DNA of 64,000 bases from contig JADJOS010000005.1 of assembly GCA_016713675.1 (NCBI GenBank), positions 144,018 to 208,017 of the forward strand, in the 5' to 3' direction. Below are positions 21,375 to 28,994 of the stretch, piece by piece. Each line of letters begins with the position of its first letter. Within the stretch, counting starts at the first letter, position 1. Below the pieces are notes generated by a model. The model saw nothing but the letters and a program-made list of their open reading frames with translations. It searched no databases and was not told the DNA's origin. The DNA is from Acidobacteriota bacterium. GTDB lineage: Bacteria; Acidobacteriota; Blastocatellia; Pyrinomonadales; Pyrinomonadaceae. The position numbers and the translations under genes were made by a program.

Positions 21375-23318
21375 ATGCTATTTAGACTTTCAGATGTGTG
21401 GAAATCGTACGGCGGGACCGAGATACTAAAAGGTGTCTCGTTTCAGGTCAACCCGAACGAAAAGGTCGGTCTCGTCGGCCGCAATGGCGCCGGGAAGACC
21501 ACGGTATTTCGCATAATCACGCAGCAAGAGGCTCCTGATGATGGTGACGTGATCAAAATGAACGGCCTCAAATTGGGCCTCCTTGATCAGCACGTCGATT
21601 TTGGCGAGGCTGAGACAGTTCACACTGCAGCACTTTCAGCGTTCAAAGAGATACACGACATGGAGGCCGAAATGCGGCGGCTCGAAAAAGAGATGGAAAC
21701 GGATCACTCCGAAGCTATTCTCGACCGATATGCCGATCTCCAAACCGCATTTGAGCACGCCGACGGATTTTCGTATGCTGCGAAGGCCGAATCTGTTCTG
21801 CTCGGAATGGGCTTCGCGCCCGAATCGTGGGGCGACGATGTGCGAACGCTTTCCGGCGGACAAAAGAACCGGCTTGGCATGGTGCGTTTGCTGCTTTCCG
21901 GTTCGGACGTTCTGCTGCTCGATGAGCCGACGAATCATTTGGACGTCGATGCTGTCGAATGGCTCGAAGAGTTTCTAAAAACATACGATAAAAGCTATGT
22001 CGTAATTAGCCACGACCGCTATTTCCTTGATCGCACGACCAACCGTGTGATCGAGATCGATCGCGGTCAGGCGGTAACGTACAAAGGTAATTATTCAAAA
22101 TATCTCGAAGAACGCGAACTTCGTAGAGAGCAGCAGATCCGCGAATACGAAAATCAGCAGCAGCTGATCAACAAAACGCAGGAATTCATCCGCCGCAATC
22201 TCGAAGGCCAAAAGACCAAACAGGCAAAATCACGCCGTACGCTCCTTGCCAAAATGGAACGTATCGAAGCAGTTACAAGCGAAAGATCGGGCGGCAATTT
22301 TGGCCTCAGGCAGGTGCAGCGAACCGGCAACAACGTGCTGACCGCCGAAGATCTGGCGATCGGTTATGGCGACAAGGTTCTCGCCCGAGATATCAAATTC
22401 TCACTTCATCGAGGCGACGCGCTCGGCATTATTGGCGGCAATGGTACTGGAAAGACGACGCTCGTGAAAACGATCCTCGGCAACATTCGTGAACTCGACG
22501 GCAAGATACACTGGGGCACAAAGGTAAACATCGGCTATTACTCGCAGAATCTTGAGGGCCTCGAACCGCGAAATGAGGTGATCCAGGAGCTCCGACGCGT
22601 AGCCCCAACTGCCGATAACGGCACACTCCGCGGTTTTCTCGCCAAATTCCTTTTCATGGGCGAAGATGTTTTCAAGCCCGTTTCAGCCCTTTCGGGAGGC
22701 GAAAAGGGTAGGCTCGCCCTTGCTAAGCTGATCTATTCGCAAAAGAACGTGCTGGTGCTCGATGAGCCTACCAACCATCTCGATATCCCATCACGCGAGT
22801 CGCTCGAAAATGCGCTCGAGGAATACGACGGAACGATCATCACGGTCAGCCACGACCGCTTTTTCCTCGACAAGATAGCGAGCCAAATGCTGTCATTCGA
22901 ACCCGACGGCACGGTACTTAGTTTTGACGGCAACTACACCGAATTTCACGACTGGAAATTGTCAGAACCACCTGCAGCAGCGGGTGGTCTTCTACACAGA
23001 TCCGTGGCCAACTTAGAGCCGCAGGCAAAAATAACGGTGGCATCGTCCGGCATCGAGCAAGCAAATGCCAACGATAAACCGGCATCGACTCTGTCAAAGA
23101 ATCAGATCAACCAGCTCGAAAAACGTATCAAAAAGATCGAATCCGATCTCCCTGAACTCGAAGACGAGGCCGCAAAACTAGCTGCAGAAATGGCCGATCC
23201 AAAGGTCGCATCGGATTATGCCCGTCTCGCCGAAGTCACACAAAAGCTCACCGAAACAGAAGCAAAGATCAAGGATCTCTACTCCGAATGGGAATCTGCC
23301 GCTGAACAGTTGTCGTAA
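21375..23318 (+). CDS. ABC-F family ATPase (two ABC domains, no TM domain)
   Basis: It has Walker A GRNGAGKTT and GGNGTGKTT, the signatures LSGGQKNR and LSGGEKGR, a charged inter-domain linker and a C-terminal coiled coil. The ATG at 21375 (MLFRLSDVWKSYGG) is preferred. Confidence 0.9.
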   Translation: MLFRLSDVWKSYGGTEILKGVSFQVNPNEKVGLVGRNGAGKTTVFRIITQQEAPDDGDVIKMNGLKLGLLDQHVDFGEAETVHTAALSAFKEIHDMEAEMRRLEKEMETDHSEAILDRYADLQTAFEHADGFSYAAKAESVLLGMGFAPESWGDDVRTLSGGQKNRLGMVRLLLSGSDVLLLDEPTNHLDVDAVEWLEEFLKTYDKSYVVISHDRYFLDRTTNRVIEIDRGQAVTYKGNYSKYLEERELRREQQIREYENQQQLINKTQEFIRRNLEGQKTKQAKSRRTLLAKMERIEAVTSERSGGNFGLRQVQRTGNNVLTAEDLAIGYGDKVLARDIKFSLHRGDALGIIGGNGTGKTTLVKTILGNIRELDGKIHWGTKVNIGYYSQNLEGLEPRNEVIQELRRVAPTADNGTLRGFLAKFLFMGEDVFKPVSALSGGEKGRLALAKLIYSQKNVLVLDEPTNHLDIPSRESLENALEEYDGTIITVSHDRFFLDKIASQMLSFEPDGTVLSFDGNYTEFHDWKLSEPPAAAGGLLHRSVANLEPQAKITVASSGIEQANANDKPASTLSKNQINQLEKRIKKIESDLPELEDEAAKLAAEMADPKVASDYARLAEVTQKLTETEAKIKDLYSEWESAAEQLS

Positions 23319-23366
23319 CAGAATTATGCTTGCAAAGGCGTTTTTCTCAATGATACATTTTGTTCA

Positions 23367-23717
23367 ATGGATCGAATTGAAAAATATGTCGACGCCGAGA
23401 TCCTCGAAGCCGACCGTAAGATCGCGATCGGCGATCTCTCTTCCGCGTTTCGTCACCTGGAACGTGCCCACGTGCTTGGCCAAGCAAGCACATATCATCA
23501 CACGCGTGTTCACTGGCGGATGTTTAGGCTTGCGTTAATGATGCATTCTGCACTCGAGATCTGGGGGCAATTCATACGGATCATCGGTGCTGCGACCAAG
23601 ACACCGCTGGGAATTTACCCGACAGGCAACACGGGCGGAGCTAACGTTTGGTTCTTCAAACCGATGCCCGTACCTGACGACTTGCAGGAGATCCTCAATC
23701 AAGCGAAAATAAAATGA
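23367..23717 (+). CDS. DUF3703-like small helical protein
   Basis: The motif HLERAHVLGQ....HTRVHWRM......D..E..GQ..R matches my recollection of DUF3703. Not verified by search. Confidence 0.5.
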   Translation: MDRIEKYVDAEILEADRKIAIGDLSSAFRHLERAHVLGQASTYHHTRVHWRMFRLALMMHSALEIWGQFIRIIGAATKTPLGIYPTGNTGGANVWFFKPMPVPDDLQEILNQAKIK

Positions 23718-23718
23718 A

Positions 23719-24042
23719 GTGAAAGTTCTTTGTTTCAGCTTTATCGTCTATCTCCTGCTCCTCATGACACAGCCGTGTCAGGACTTGCTTGCAATGGAGA
23801 ATGATTGCACTGATAGTAGGACAGAGATCACTAGCATTCAGCCAACAAGTGACAGGCACTCTGACGATTGCTCCCCATTCTGTCTTTGTCCATGCTGTAG
23901 CCTGTCGGTTGCTGATCATTCTTTCCGGACATTTGCTTCAAGCGATGTTGAAAGTAAAGCGATTCCAACGAACGTCATCGAGTATGCAAACCCATACTCA
24001 AAAGCCCACCAAAACTCCATTTGGCAGCCGCCAAAAGCTTAA
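23719..24042 (+). CDS. Cys-rich exported mini-protein (DUF6660-like, from memory)
   Basis: GTG start 2 nt after the preceding stop. It has an N-terminal hydrophobic segment ending in PCQD, a central DDCSPFCLCPCCS motif and a C-terminal WQPPKA. Proteins of this architecture sit next to TonB-dependent receptors in Bacteroidetes, as far as I recall. Confidence 0.5.
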   Translation: MKVLCFSFIVYLLLLMTQPCQDLLAMENDCTDSRTEITSIQPTSDRHSDDCSPFCLCPCCSLSVADHSFRTFASSDVESKAIPTNVIEYANPYSKAHQNSIWQPPKA

Positions 24043-24116
24043 CTGCCCCGCACCACTGCGCCCGCTTTTCGTCACCATTTTGTAAAGGTGACATGGTTCG
24101 AGTTAGAGCTAAGGTT

Positions 24117-26297
24117 ATGGAGTTTATGAGAAGAGCAATTATATTTCTCGTCGTCGTTCTGACAGCCAACACCGTGTTGGCGCAAAGCGCAACTACGGTC
24201 ACGATCATTGTAAAGAACAGAGATACAAAGGCGAATATCGCCGAAGCGACAGTTCGCCTAAAGGGCACCGAGGTGTCTGCGGTCACTGATATAAACGGTA
24301 GGGCGGAGCTTAGGATCGCAGCTGATGGTGACCAAACTATCGAGATATTCTCACCCGGATTCGAAACGTTGGAACTCAAACTTACTTACCCGCTGACCGA
24401 TCCGTCCGAACGAGTCGCATTCCTTGAGATCAACAATGAAGTTGGCGAGGTGACGATAACCTCGACTCGAACCGGCCGCGAGATCGAATCGGAACCTTCA
24501 CGTGTCGAGGCGATCGACGAAGAAGAGATAGATGAAAAGATCAATATGCGGCCCGCGAATGTCTCGATGGTCTTACATGAGAGCACTGGCATTCAGGTGC
24601 AGCAGACATCGGCAACATCGAATACACAAAGTGTTCGGATCCAGGGCCTTTATGGCCGTTATACTCAGATCTTAAAGGACGGTTTTCCGGCATTTGGCGG
24701 CTTTTCCGGCAGTCTTAGCATTCTTGAAATACCACCTCTCGATCTTAAACAGGTCGAGGTTGTAAAGGGTCCTGCCGCGACTCTGTTCGGCGGTGACGCG
24801 ATCGCCGGAGTCGTCAATTTTGTCACGAAAGACCCCACGGACGAGCCTGTGACTACGCTGATCCTGAATCAAACGTCGGCATACGGCACTGACTTTTCGG
24901 TTTTCAATTCACGCAAATACTCGCGGTTCGGCTATACGCTCCACGGCTCTACAAATTATCAACGACCGTATGACGTTGATGACGACGATTTTACGGAGTT
25001 GCCGCAAACTACGGCTTTCGGTTTCCGCCCAAAGTTGCTCTTCTATATCGATCAGAAAACTACTTTAACGGTTGGCAACTCGATGTCCTATCAAAACCGC
25101 AAGGGGGGGGACACTTTTGTGCTAAATGGCAACGCTACGGCGTTTCATCAGTATTTCGAACAAAATCGATCCTTTCGAAACATCACGTCGTTCAATCTCA
25201 ACCGCGAATTCGCAACCGGCGGACGATTGTTTGCAAAACAAAGTCTTGCGTTCTTCGATCGCGAACTGACGACGCAAAGTTACGTATTCAAGGGAAGCCA
25301 GTTCAATTCATTTACTGATATATCTTATGCACAGGCATTTGGTAGGCATGCAGTCGTTTTTGGCGGAAGTGTTGTCTACGATCAGTTTCGGGAAAAGACG
25401 ACGAACGGTATCGATCCTCGCGATGAAACTCGATCGACTGTCGGAGTATTTGTTCAAGACACAGTCGACCTAACCGACAGATTTTCGCTCGAAGCCGGGT
25501 TTCGACTCGACTATTCCAAGGATCATGGCGTTTTCGCTTTACCCCGAGTCTCACTACTCTATCGGTTCAGCGAACATTTGACCACTCGCGTCGGATTCGG
25601 CCTAGGATACAAGACGCCAACAATGTTCACTGAAGACGCCGAGACACTTTTGTTCAGAAATGTGTCACCTGTTGACGAACTTCTAAAAGCAGAACGAAGC
25701 AAAGGCGGGACGTTTGATGTTAATTACAAGGATAGTATCGGCGAGAACTTTACCTATTCCCTCAACCAGATGTTCTTTTACACAGAAATAACCGATCCGA
25801 TCATCCTGAGGCCCGATACCAATAACATCTTTCGGTTTAGCAACGCCCCGTCACTTGTGATCAGCAAAGGTTTTGAGACGAACGCACGGGTCGGCTACTC
25901 GATCACGAAGCTCTTCTTCGGCTATACTTTCACCGACGCGAAGGCCGGATTCCTCACTGGTGACCACACACTGACTTTGTTGCCGAGACATAGGGTCAAC
26001 TCATCGCTCGTTTTCGAAAAACACGAGAGCTTTAAGGCCGGAGTTGAGTTTTACTATGGAAGCCGGCAGACACTCGATGACCGTTCGCTGACGCGATCAA
26101 CTGCTGAGTTAGGATTGTTTGGCGAGAAGAGCTTCGGCAAGTTCAGTCTGTTTATCAATGCCGAGAACCTGACCGATGTCCGTCAGGGACGTTATGGTCG
26201 GGTTGTTCTCGGAACGCATCAGAATCCGACATTCGCTGAACTCTATACACATACCGAGGGTCGTATTTTTAACGGCGGAATTAAGATAAGATTGTAA
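24117..26297 (+). CDS. TonB-dependent outer-membrane receptor with an N-terminal carboxypeptidase-regulatory-like domain
   Basis: The signal peptide starts from the ATG at 24117 (MEFMRRAIIFLVVVLTANTVLAQ). It has a CarboxypepD_reg-like beta-sandwich, a plug (IQGLYGRYTQILKDG.P) and a barrel ending in an aromatic-rich terminal strand (GGIKIRL). Confidence 0.9.
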   Translation: MEFMRRAIIFLVVVLTANTVLAQSATTVTIIVKNRDTKANIAEATVRLKGTEVSAVTDINGRAELRIAADGDQTIEIFSPGFETLELKLTYPLTDPSERVAFLEINNEVGEVTITSTRTGREIESEPSRVEAIDEEEIDEKINMRPANVSMVLHESTGIQVQQTSATSNTQSVRIQGLYGRYTQILKDGFPAFGGFSGSLSILEIPPLDLKQVEVVKGPAATLFGGDAIAGVVNFVTKDPTDEPVTTLILNQTSAYGTDFSVFNSRKYSRFGYTLHGSTNYQRPYDVDDDDFTELPQTTAFGFRPKLLFYIDQKTTLTVGNSMSYQNRKGGDTFVLNGNATAFHQYFEQNRSFRNITSFNLNREFATGGRLFAKQSLAFFDRELTTQSYVFKGSQFNSFTDISYAQAFGRHAVVFGGSVVYDQFREKTTNGIDPRDETRSTVGVFVQDTVDLTDRFSLEAGFRLDYSKDHGVFALPRVSLLYRFSEHLTTRVGFGLGYKTPTMFTEDAETLLFRNVSPVDELLKAERSKGGTFDVNYKDSIGENFTYSLNQMFFYTEITDPIILRPDTNNIFRFSNAPSLVISKGFETNARVGYSITKLFFGYTFTDAKAGFLTGDHTLTLLPRHRVNSSLVFEKHESFKAGVEFYYGSRQTLDDRSLTRSTAELGLFGEKSFGKFSLFINAENLTDVRQGRYGRVVLGTHQNPTFAELYTHTEGRIFNGGIKIRL

Positions 26298-26319
26298 TAC
26301 GTTGGATCGAGTAGAGAAT

Positions 26320-26742
26320 ATGTCAATAAATGGAATAGCCAGCCTGCTGCCCTATATCGCTTGGATAATCGTGCTGTTGTCTATCGCCGGCAGCTTGTTT
26401 TTCAGTGAAGTGATGCAGCTGCCGCCATGCGTCTTGTGTTGGGTTCAGCGGATCGCGATGTATCCGCTGCTGCTGATCATCGGTGCGGGAATAATCACTC
26501 GTGACGCAAAGATGAAGATCTACGCCTTGCCGCTGTGTCTCTCCGGGTTGGCCGTTGCCATTTATCACAATCTGCTCTACTACGGAATTATCCCCGAGAC
26601 GATCGCGCCATGTTCAGAAGGCGTTCCTTGCAACGCCGTGCAGATCGAGCTTCTCGGCTTTATTACGATACCGTTGATGGGGCTCGCGGCTTTCGCCACG
26701 ATAGCGCTTTGTTTGATATTTTATAAACCAAAGGAAAATTAA
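26320..26742 (+). CDS. disulfide bond formation protein B (BdbC/DsbB family)
   Basis: It has four TM segments, the first-loop CxxC (PPCVLCWVQR) and a second Cys pair (APCSEGVPC). The ATG at 26320 is preferred over the TTG at 26302. Confidence 0.8.
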   Translation: MSINGIASLLPYIAWIIVLLSIAGSLFFSEVMQLPPCVLCWVQRIAMYPLLLIIGAGIITRDAKMKIYALPLCLSGLAVAIYHNLLYYGIIPETIAPCSEGVPCNAVQIELLGFITIPLMGLAAFATIALCLIFYKPKEN

Positions 26743-26744
26743 TT

Positions 26745-27437
26745 ATGCGTAAAGAGATCATTATATTAGGGGCGATAATCGCCCTTGTCGTTGTCGGGGC
26801 TGTGATCGGTTCAAACTATTATCGTAGTTCCGTTCAAAAAGAATCGGTCGTCGGTAACAGCAATTCCGGTGGAAAGCCAAAGATCGCTCCAGAACAGCTG
26901 GTTCGGCCCGACAGCCCGTCATTAGGGCCCGCGGACGCGAAAGTAACACTAGTTGAGTTTTACGATCCCGAATGCGAATCATGTGCGTCGTTTGCACCGG
27001 TCGTCAAAAAGATCCTCAAAGAATACGAAGGCAAGATTCGTTTCGTGACGAGATACATGCCGCTCCATCCAAACTCCTTGACAGCCGCGAACTTCACCGA
27101 GGCCGCAGGCGAGCAAGGCAAGTATTGGGAAGCCCAGGACATTCTATTCAGAAAACAGCCTGAATGGGGAACAAAACACGGCCCGCCGACCGCTGCTCCG
27201 CTGCCCAATATCAACGAGTTGTTCGACAAATACGCCAAGGAACTCGGCCTCGATATGGAAAAAGCGTCGGCCGCGATCAAGTCAAAGAAATTCGACGCGA
27301 AGATCGAGCAGGACCGAAAAGACGGCCAGGCCATCGGCGTCCGACGGACCCCTACATTTTTCGTCAACGGCCGAGAACTTGCTACCTTCGGCGAATCATA
27401 TTTACGTGCTCTGATCGAAGAGGAAATGAAAAAGTAG
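26745..27437 (+). CDS. DsbA/BdbD-like thiol:disulfide oxidoreductase, membrane-anchored
   Basis: It has an N-terminal TM anchor and a thioredoxin fold with FYDPECESCASF (CxxC). It starts 2 nt after the dsbB-like stop. Confidence 0.85.
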   Translation: MRKEIIILGAIIALVVVGAVIGSNYYRSSVQKESVVGNSNSGGKPKIAPEQLVRPDSPSLGPADAKVTLVEFYDPECESCASFAPVVKKILKEYEGKIRFVTRYMPLHPNSLTAANFTEAAGEQGKYWEAQDILFRKQPEWGTKHGPPTAAPLPNINELFDKYAKELGLDMEKASAAIKSKKFDAKIEQDRKDGQAIGVRRTPTFFVNGRELATFGESYLRALIEEEMKK

Positions 27438-27454
27438 TTAACCACGAAAAAAAG

Positions 27455-27495
27455 GAAAAGACGCAAAAAGGAGAATCTCTTTTTTGCGTCTTTTC
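27455..27495. terminator. bidirectional terminator between the dsbA-like gene and guaB
   Basis: gaaaagacgcaaaaag pairs with cttttttgcgtcttttc (one bulged T). It is flanked by an A-run and a T-run and lies between convergent genes. Confidence 0.6.
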
Positions 27496-27518
27496 TCGTT
27501 TCTCGCGGTCATATCTTC

Positions 27519-28994
<1,476 letters not shown>

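Follow-up and report, generated by a model that had tools for sequence, protein, structure and literature searches.

The stretch analysed here, 64,000 nt of contig JADJOS010000005.1 from an Acidobacteriota bacterium of the Pyrinomonadaceae (hereafter the window), carries on its + strand a small cysteine-rich open reading frame (ORF) directly before the gene of a TonB-dependent receptor (TBDR), in a string that begins with a DUF3703 protein and ends with a DsbB-DsbA pair. The locus raises the question of what the small ORF does, and which of its neighbours belong with it. The original prediction read the five same-strand genes as a self-contained module in which the exported peptide would be matured by the Dsb pair and/or recaptured by the receptor. 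All five ORFs were present in the ORF listing at the coordinates given below, and their domain identities were borne out by Pfam and NCBIfam. The locus is real and metal-related, and the idea of an exported, cysteine-bearing and metal-directed peptide is supported; the self-contained five-gene unit with maturation and recapture is not. We propose instead that the functional core is a two-gene switch made of the small ORF, a member of the family DUF6660, and the TBDR gene behind it, and that DUF6660 acts as a metal-sensing ribosome-arrest leader peptide. We give this reading a probability of about 0.6, and all steps of its mechanism are drawn by analogy with CutF and CruR.

DUF6660 and the gene that follows it

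The putative leader ORF (23719..24042, + strand, GTG start) encodes 107 aa and carries DDCSPFCLCPCCS. It matched PF20365 over its full length (residues 1-107) with an E-value of 7.5e-10 and 39.6 bits against a cut-off of 27, and it reached 36.8 bits in the whole-genome profile search. The peptide family had been described as one of unknown function. Pfam does list the function as unknown, but the family already has a name there, DUF6660. No paper using the name DUF6660 or DUF3703 came up in the literature searches.

A pattern scan with one genome per species returned >431 DUF6660 relatives in Acidobacteriota and Bacteroidota. Neighbourhoods with 10-kb flanks were counted for the best 80 of these >431 loci, which hold 84 DUF6660 genes, two of them at contig ends. 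The next same-strand gene was CzcA in 47 cases, OEP in 8, a TBDR in 24 and some other gene in 3, with the contig ending in the last 2. Altogether 79 of 82 DUF6660 genes directly precede a same-strand CzcCBA-type pump (55) or a TBDR (24), and the median gaps to the next gene were 78-119 nt. The conserved core is DUF6660 and the gene after it only. The genes around these loci are metal-related throughout and include Fur-family, ArsR and NikR regulators, multicopper oxidases, HMA proteins, P1B-ATPases, cation diffusion facilitators (CDFs), PEMT/ICMT methyltransferases, PepSY_TM proteins and ars genes. On the family tree, the sister of the window DUF6660 leads a resistance-nodulation-division (RND) pump, and the cargo switched between pump and receptor at least 7 times by parsimony, at least 2 of these switches being forced by well-supported branches.

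These counts bear directly on the idea of a secreted, metallophore-like peptide that is matured by DsbB-DsbA and recaptured by the TBDR. The tight spacing of the five genes on one strand speaks for such a unit. However, two thirds of the DUF6660 members head efflux pumps without a receptor (55/82 for CzcCBA), and the nearest relatives of the window peptide are among them: its closest homologues (61-64% identity) head CzcCBA operons, and one homologue of 51% identity heads an orthologous TBDR, followed by PEMT and CDF. Moreover, the string contains no exporter, protease or modification enzyme, and an outer-membrane route for a 9-kDa peptide is not evident.

The TBDR gene (24126..26297, + strand, 723 aa) lies in an ORF that opens at 24021 and ends at 26297. 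Comparison with orthologues placed the true start at the ATG at 24126, which is preceded by GGAG and gives a protein beginning MRRAIIF and a spacer of 83 nt after DUF6660. The protein has a signal peptide, an N-terminal CarboxypepD_reg domain, a Plug domain (PF07715, 5.1e-18) and a barrel (PF00593, 3.3e-28). Its orthologues in relatives are 69-77% identical, and DUF6660 lies upstream in 8 of the 12 genus loci with a TBDR orthologue, including all 7 at >=69% identity. No equivalog or substrate-specific NCBIfam model reached its cut-off with the TBDR, and its best relative in the PDB was CirA (E 5.5e-17), a match of a generic level. The assignment of a ligand to the TBDR was rejected on these two results. 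Since the neighbouring genes vary by locus (NikR, CDF, multicopper oxidase, ars, PepSY_TM), no single metal can be named.

DUF6660 occurs three times and DUF3703 twice in the same genome (3.6 Mb). Directly behind the second DUF6660 stands OEP-CzcB-CzcA. Its locus (L006, G000:C5:8087-17926) reads DUF6660, OEP, CzcB, CzcA, a 146-aa hypothetical protein, CDF, DUF3703, YnfA and an opposite-strand CDF, an order that parallels czcNICBAD of pMOL30. The third copy (G000:C4, locus L007, 7022-8833, - strand) is truncated to 84 aa and has lost the IWQPP tail described below. The OEP behind it is split into two overlapping ORFs, apparently by a frameshift, and a CusB-like gene follows; upstream lie a histidine kinase, a sigma-54 regulator, two DUF4198 genes and a YHS/HMBD P1B-ATPase. 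This operon looks like a decaying efflux operon. Among the Bacteroidota loci (L037-L093), 12 have a Fur-family regulator of about 135-137 aa right upstream of DUF6660, often with an HMBD-multicopper oxidase before it, and many loci of this set have CzcA and OEP in one similarity cluster.

A candidate arrest peptide and its leader RNA

The conservation of the DUF6660 motifs was followed in alignments of 23 and 65 members, and the distance from cysteine to proline was measured over 82 distinct sequences. The predicted export signal of the window peptide (23719..23784, + strand) consists of MK, a 14-residue hydrophobic helix and the conserved QPCQD. Family-wide, the N-terminus is M(K/R) followed by a hydrophobic helix that ends in PCxD at residue 18-19, the distance from the start to PC being 18 residues in 74 of 78 members, and two homologues carry the source name 'Secreted protein'. 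A His/acid-rich linker of variable length (28-36 residues) follows PCxD. After the corresponding acidic/His-rich linker of the window peptide comes the cluster C51-S-P-F-C55-L-C57-P-C59-C60 (23869..23898, + strand), which includes a CxxxC. C51, S52, P53 and C57 were invariant and F54, C55, C59 and C60 at least 90% conserved in the 65 sequences, and the family form D-x-C-S-P-F-C-x-C-x-C-C is almost invariant. The arrest-like C-terminal motif I-W-Q-P-P-K (24019..24036, + strand) lies 2 codons before the stop. Its P104 and P105 were invariant and I, W and Q at least 90% conserved in the same 65 sequences; IWQPP(K/Q/R) was present in 62 of 82 members, the family form of the tail being S-I-W-Q-P-P-(K/Q). 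Across the family, the diproline sits 2-6 residues from the stop.

The stretch between the cysteine cluster and the diproline is hypervariable in sequence and near-fixed in length: the first cluster cysteine and the first proline are 49-54 residues apart, and exactly 53 in 51 of the 82 sequences. In syntenic loci, DUF6660 shows 34-50% identity against 70-77% for TBDR and DsbA; put as single figures, the peptide stands at 38% and its neighbours at 76%. This fast divergence beside conserved neighbours is consistent with constraint on no more than the motifs of the peptide and their spacing. AlphaFold2 (AF2) modelling with the 65-sequence alignment gave a confident helix at residues 2-17 (pLDDT 85-93) and left the remainder unstructured, and the structure search found no related solved structure for DUF6660. 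This anatomy points to a cis-acting ribosome-arrest leader of the CutF/CruR type rather than to a folded secreted product. A DUF3703 homologue (P0100) ends in NSLLQPPKA, which resembles the DUF6660 tail and may come from a fusion or a frameshifted DUF3703-DUF6660 junction.

Two characterised leaders provide the closest comparison. CruR (Bp2923, DUF2946) heads the TBDR operon cruR-bfrG-bp2921 of Bordetella pertussis, where copper at its CXXC relieves arrest on the C-terminal RAPP and triggers Rho-dependent termination; a spacing of ~45 residues between cysteine and arrest site is conserved and functionally required (Roy et al. 2022, PMC9426467). Like CruR, DUF6660 is a small ORF directly upstream of a TBDR, with a predicted N-terminal export signal, a cysteine metal motif, a conserved spacer, a Pro-Pro few residues before the stop and a long structured intergenic region. 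The first cysteine and the first proline are 51 residues apart in CruR (C90, P141) and 53 in the window DUF6660, and PepSY_TM genes lie near some loci homologous to that of the window, as they do for CruR. In contrast to the CXXC of CruR, the CxxxCxCxCC of DUF6660 comprises CxxxC, CxC and CC and no CXXC, and the tail IWQPPKA has Trp-Gln in place of the Arg-Ala of RAPP. DUF6660 belongs to Acidobacteriota and Bacteroidota, whereas CruR belongs to Proteobacteria.

CutF of the Rhodobacter capsulatus cutFOG operon is exported co-translationally, senses periplasmic copper by CxxxC and stalls on a C-terminal PPP, and the stall melts a stem-loop that masks cutO's ribosome-binding site (PMC9973294). 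A 2025 model holds that periplasmic disulfide formation pulls the chain out of the arrest and that bound copper prevents this (bioRxiv 10.1101/2025.02.05.636593). Under the rules of Ozturk et al. (2023, PMC9973294), a CutF-like protein is shorter than 150 aa, shows PP among its last 15 residues, bears a signal peptide and has a gene on the same strand less than 1000 nt downstream. Their survey contained 5,334 proteins, 40% from Bacteroidota after normalisation, with other phyla minor, and the neighbours were OEP, ACR_tran, HlyD_D23, CusF, TonB-type and PCuAC (PMC9973294). The window DUF6660 falls within the rules on size, diproline and downstream gene, with 107 aa, P104-P105 two residues from the end, and the same-strand TBDR 83 nt downstream; for the signal rule it shows MK and the 14-residue hydrophobic helix, the AF2 helix being compatible with either a cleaved signal or an anchor. 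It shares with CutF a CxxxC plus an upstream cysteine, and the family shares the neighbour classes OEP, ACR_tran, HlyD_D23 and TonB-type. Unlike CutF, it precedes a TBDR or an RND pump and not a multicopper oxidase, and its tail is PP, not PPP. The Acidobacteriota fall among the minor other phyla of the survey (PMC9973294). By this comparison, DUF6660 is best classed as probably working like CutF and CruR and as CutF-like under the rule-based definition, and not as a DUF2946 member.

A third small ORF of similar layout is czcI of Cupriavidus metallidurans pMOL30 (czcNICBADRSE), which encodes 115 aa and lies 75 nt before czcC. CzcI has a signal, an early cysteine (YCQHE), a His-rich linker, DTDCGVCH (DxDCxxC), a spacer and RAPDRP, with 46 residues from the first cysteine to the second proline, and its match to PF11162 was only E 0.026. 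Unlike DUF6660 with its PP, CzcI has no diproline (PMC9973294); it is a proposed metal-sensing regulator. DUF6660 loci have counterparts of czcN, which encodes a PEMT/ICMT protein, in their PEMT genes, and also of czcD (CDF).

By analogy with CutF and CruR, DUF6660 would be translated and exported co-translationally via its N-terminal signal. With the ribosome at the invariant I-W-Q-P-P codons, ~50 residues of the nascent chain would span the exit tunnel and the translocon, and the CSPFCxCxCC cluster and the PCxD cysteine would just have emerged in the periplasm. There, the cluster may bind a thiophilic metal or be oxidised to disulfides, and the choice between the two would alter the length of the pause on Pro-Pro. 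The paused or released ribosome would remodel the 83-nt leader RNA, and this remodelling would control either read-through of transcription into the receptor gene or the start of its translation. At the two paralogous loci of this genome, and in the majority of other species, the same leader would drive CzcCBA pumps.

The structured leader between DUF6660 and the TBDR (24043..24125, + strand) contains a CUGCGCC box (24056-24062) that is shared by acidobacterial loci, a U-run behind it (24066-24069), a hairpin whose sequence varies by locus (24071-24076 pairing with 24087-24092), and the Shine-Dalgarno (SD) sequence GGAG (24119-24122) before the TBDR ATG, all on the + strand. Acidobacterial leaders of both TBDR and RND type have a UGCGCC box ~14 nt past the stop, a U-rich run, a variable hairpin, an AU-rich stretch and AGGAG. 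The (C)UGCGCC box with its U-run was invariant at 24056-24069 of the window and in L006, L013-L036 and L124, and no convincing pairing partner for the box was found in the acidobacterial leaders. The flavobacterial DUF6660 loci have conserved hairpins of their own.

In the minimum free energy fold of the window, the Asn-Ser-Ile codons (24012-24020) pair with the SD region (24117-24125) over 9 bp (z -2.6), which is a CutF-type arrangement. SD-masking through this helix was not upheld by the footprint test at 21 loci or by RNAalifold, both given below. The Trp-Gln-Pro-Pro-Lys codons (24021-24034) form a small hairpin UUGGC/GCCAA; almost every acidobacterial homologue is predicted to have it, and it may simply follow from codon choice. 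A Rho site was rejected, as leader and coding region have the same C>G skew, and a scan of the + strand for sigma-70 promoters and terminators gave nothing informative. In two bioreactor metatranscriptomes (runs X23 and X24), the contigs within 23000-27800 covered only 23743-24119, that is, DUF6660 and the leader; they end 7 nt before the TBDR start, and none lies over the TBDR or the Dsb genes. The confinement of the RNA contigs to DUF6660 and the leader is a weak hint at attenuation.

Several results weigh against the arrest-leader reading. In a partition-function test over 21 loci, the footprint of an arrested ribosome exposed the SD sequence no better than the control (p 0.13), and RNAalifold, run on a MAFFT alignment, detected the local UGGC/GCCA hairpin alone and no helix with covariation over a long range. 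The metatranscriptome support comes from two contigs of ~3x depth, one of them from a variant strain. PF11162 (DUF2946) gave no match in the window at E <= 0.01, nor does any protein of the genome reach its cut-off, and hhalign of DUF6660 against CzcI detected no homology (probability 8.6%). The tail is IWQPP and neither RAPP nor PPP, its arrest being an assumption. The window DUF6660 is not the first gene of its string, DUF3703 ending 1 nt before it. The leaders in front of importers and of exporters are very similar, and the two would need opposite logic unless metal excess induces the receptor. Finally, metal-binding peptides may likewise look disordered in AF2, as metal-free ones often are.

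The last point belongs to another explanation, in which DUF6660 persists in the envelope as a stable protein. It would be a metallothionein-like chaperone or buffer, periplasmic or anchored by its signal, with a CusF-like role, and would pass thiophilic metal to the pump or take it from the TBDR while DsbA manages its cysteines. DUF6660 is predicted to be exported, has six conserved cysteines and a His/acid-rich linker, and is co-located with envelope-spanning metal transporters. Furthermore, it has 8 cysteines against none in the TBDR and none in DUF3703, and it is the sole cysteine-containing exported product of the string, beside DsbB-DsbA in the window. However, the work of a stable chaperone would not call for two invariant prolines 2-6 codons ahead of the stop or for a constant 49-54 residues across a hypervariable spacer, and DUF6660 is always immediately upstream and never elsewhere in the operon. 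It also diverges far faster than its partners, which interchange between pumps and receptors with no co-varying partner class, and the analogous CutF is undetectable and rapidly degraded once exported (PMC9973294). We regard a stable chaperone as unlikely.

The DsbB-DsbA pair and DUF3703

The gene of a BdbC-type membrane thiol oxidase, DsbB (26302..26742, + strand, 146 aa), starts 4 nt past the TBDR stop. It matched PF02600 with E 3.2e-12 and 47.5 bits against a cut-off of 22.1, and NF002849 (BdbC-like) with E 1.9e-30 and a score of 105.8, below the cut-off of 124; its cysteine pairs are C43/C46 and C104/C110. A membrane-anchored DsbA-like thioredoxin (26745..27437, + strand, 230 aa; Thioredoxin_4, E 6.3e-30, 105 bits) with CESC at 77-80 starts 2 nt past DsbB. 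At the other end of the string, the DUF3703 protein (23367..23717, + strand, 116 aa; PF12487, E 1.8e-37) has no cysteine and no signal peptide and is taken to be cytoplasmic, and the GTG of DUF6660 follows 1 nt past its stop. Its AF2 model (pLDDT 79) has four TPR-like helices, a conserved GNTGG loop and a C-terminal helix; the PDB fold search gave TPR-like folds at best (E 0.3) and nothing informative. The second DUF3703 of the genome adjoins CDF and YnfA.

The genome encodes no other DsbB. It does have a VKOR gene beside a Thioredoxin_4/DsbA-like gene (G000:C1:891136-892106, - strand), probably its housekeeping disulfide-forming pair. A third Thioredoxin_4 domain lies within a 459-aa frame (C1:2078102-2078578). 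A housekeeping role for DsbB-DsbA was excluded by the VKOR-DsbA pair and by the patchy presence of DsbB in the genus: it occurred in 21 of 36 other same-genus genomes, against 1 of 24 genomes of other genera. As VKOR-DsbA is also in the genome, the window pair is accessory. In the DsbB loci of 20 relatives, DsbA was called directly after DsbB in 17; in the other three, one call was missing, the contig ended, or no DsbA was there. In about half of these 20 loci, the surroundings are CDF, P1B-ATPase, CzcCBA, NikR-TBDR or copper cassettes such as multicopper oxidase-DUF3347-DUF305.

How firmly the Dsb pair belongs to the DUF6660-TBDR core was judged from other genomes. The co-occurrence of the cysteine-rich family with TBDR and Dsb genes, put forward as a check of the original prediction, came out for the receptor (24 of 82 genes, and the 7 closest genus orthologues) and against the Dsb genes: DsbB-DsbA trails DUF6660-TBDR in only 1 of 24 cross-species TBDR-type loci, the other 23 having none, and a same-strand DsbB follows in 4 of the 12 genus loci. 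One other genome (G036, locus L124) has the five-gene string in exactly this form, with different flanks; in another (L136/L154) a copper cassette splits it. DUF6660-TBDR-DsbB-DsbA recurs in L015 with NikR directly upstream. These recurrences, and an oxidase pair that is accessory and not the only such system, could still be fitted to a maturation-recapture module, but DsbB-DsbA also occurs in metal islands without DUF6660. Together with the pump-headed majority of the family, this makes such a module highly improbable. Side by side with these loci stands L128 (G027:C3, 7884-14638, - strand), which has NikR, a divergent TBDR (787 aa), a 119-aa ORF, DUF3703, DsbB, DsbA and Redoxin/AhpC-TSA and no DUF6660, and which suggests a nickel-regulated variant of the neighbourhood. 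Synteny of the upstream ABC-F gene with L019 was ruled out by tblastn.

The Dsb pair and DUF3703 might then have no mechanistic tie to the core at all: in a mosaic metal-resistance island, they would be independent cargo, and DUF6660-TBDR alone would be a functional unit. Elsewhere in the genus, DsbB-DsbA trails CDF, P1B-ATPase and multicopper-oxidase cassettes, a CzcCBA-CDF operon or a sigma-54 regulator, DUF3703 follows CDF at the second locus of this genome, and DsbB-DsbA and DUF3703 are each found with the TBDR in only 4 of 12 orthologous loci. On the other side, 4 of 12 is far above chance in a 3.6-Mb genome, and the gaps of 2-4 nt suggest co-translation with the TBDR in the window. Moreover, DsbB-DsbA repeatedly closes same-strand clusters headed by cysteine-rich, PP-tailed leaders: DUF6660 in the window, L124, L015 and L136, a DUF6660-like ORF in L141, and a 'YRPPP' family in L127, L136 and L138. 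Wholly independent cargo is in our view somewhat unlikely, and we consider DUF3703 and DsbB-DsbA to be probably facultative passengers of the metal-resistance islands of this genus.

A second leader-like family of about 145-170 aa, without a Pfam entry, was seen at L017:12691-13140, L029:2748-3197, L127:10030-10464(-), L136:13613-14065(-) and L138:13059-13565(-). It has an N-terminal transmembrane helix (FCLSHC or CLTYC), HC and CC motifs and a C-terminal PVYRPPP...NCVIRI, and the genes behind it encode a protein with 'CCGDSCPMK' repeats, rich in Cys, Met and His, and a multicopper oxidase. Its position before a multicopper oxidase resembles the CutF-CutO arrangement.

Accessory thiol-oxidoreductase loci are tied to metal tolerance in other bacteria, as in scsABCD of Salmonella, and the copper tolerance of E. 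coli is DsbC-dependent. As in those systems, envelope thioredoxin-fold proteins are here linked to metal stress, the window pair sitting in metal islands, but it consists of a BdbC-type DsbB and a DsbA oxidase and not, like Scs, of a reductase/isomerase. Probably co-expressed with metal-stress genes, DsbB-DsbA would keep envelope cysteines oxidised, and it may oxidise the cysteine cluster of the leader. The tie between DsbA and the peptide that was first proposed is plausible in this form, given that DUF6660 is the only exported cysteine product and given the disulfide model of CutF, but the comparative data make it optional. A stronger version, in which DsbB-DsbA at the 3' end of leader-controlled metal operons oxidises the nascent DUF6660 cluster, sets the metal-free state of a disulfide-versus-metal switch and closes a feedback loop, strikes us as a long shot.

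Implications for DUF6660 operons

The concept of such leaders is already published, and CutF-like members from Bacteroidota were counted in 2023 (PMC9973294). What is new here is that Pfam DUF6660 is identified with the CutF/CruR class. New as well are its branch in Acidobacteriota, the tail IWQPP, the RNA box common to the leaders, the placing of near-identical leaders in front of both importers and exporters, and the accessory DsbB-DsbA that recurs. A further long shot starts from the near-identical leaders with the same CUGCGCC box that drive efflux pumps and this receptor: the receptor would be induced by metal excess and not repressed by it, and in that case its role would lie in detoxification or metal exchange rather than in scavenging. 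With its recurrence at operon ends, DsbB-DsbA lends itself to a study of the step in which, as proposed for CutF, disulfide formation pulls the chain.

DUF6660, a family listed without a function, stands at the head of operons for heavy-metal efflux and for receptors, hundreds of them, across Bacteroidota and Acidobacteriota. If DUF6660 is a nascent-chain sensor, as we favour, these operons would gain a testable regulatory logic, and the switch would extend to a phylum and a motif (IWQPP, CxxxCxCxCC) outside DUF2946. It would also warn annotators against treating DUF6660 as a structural protein.

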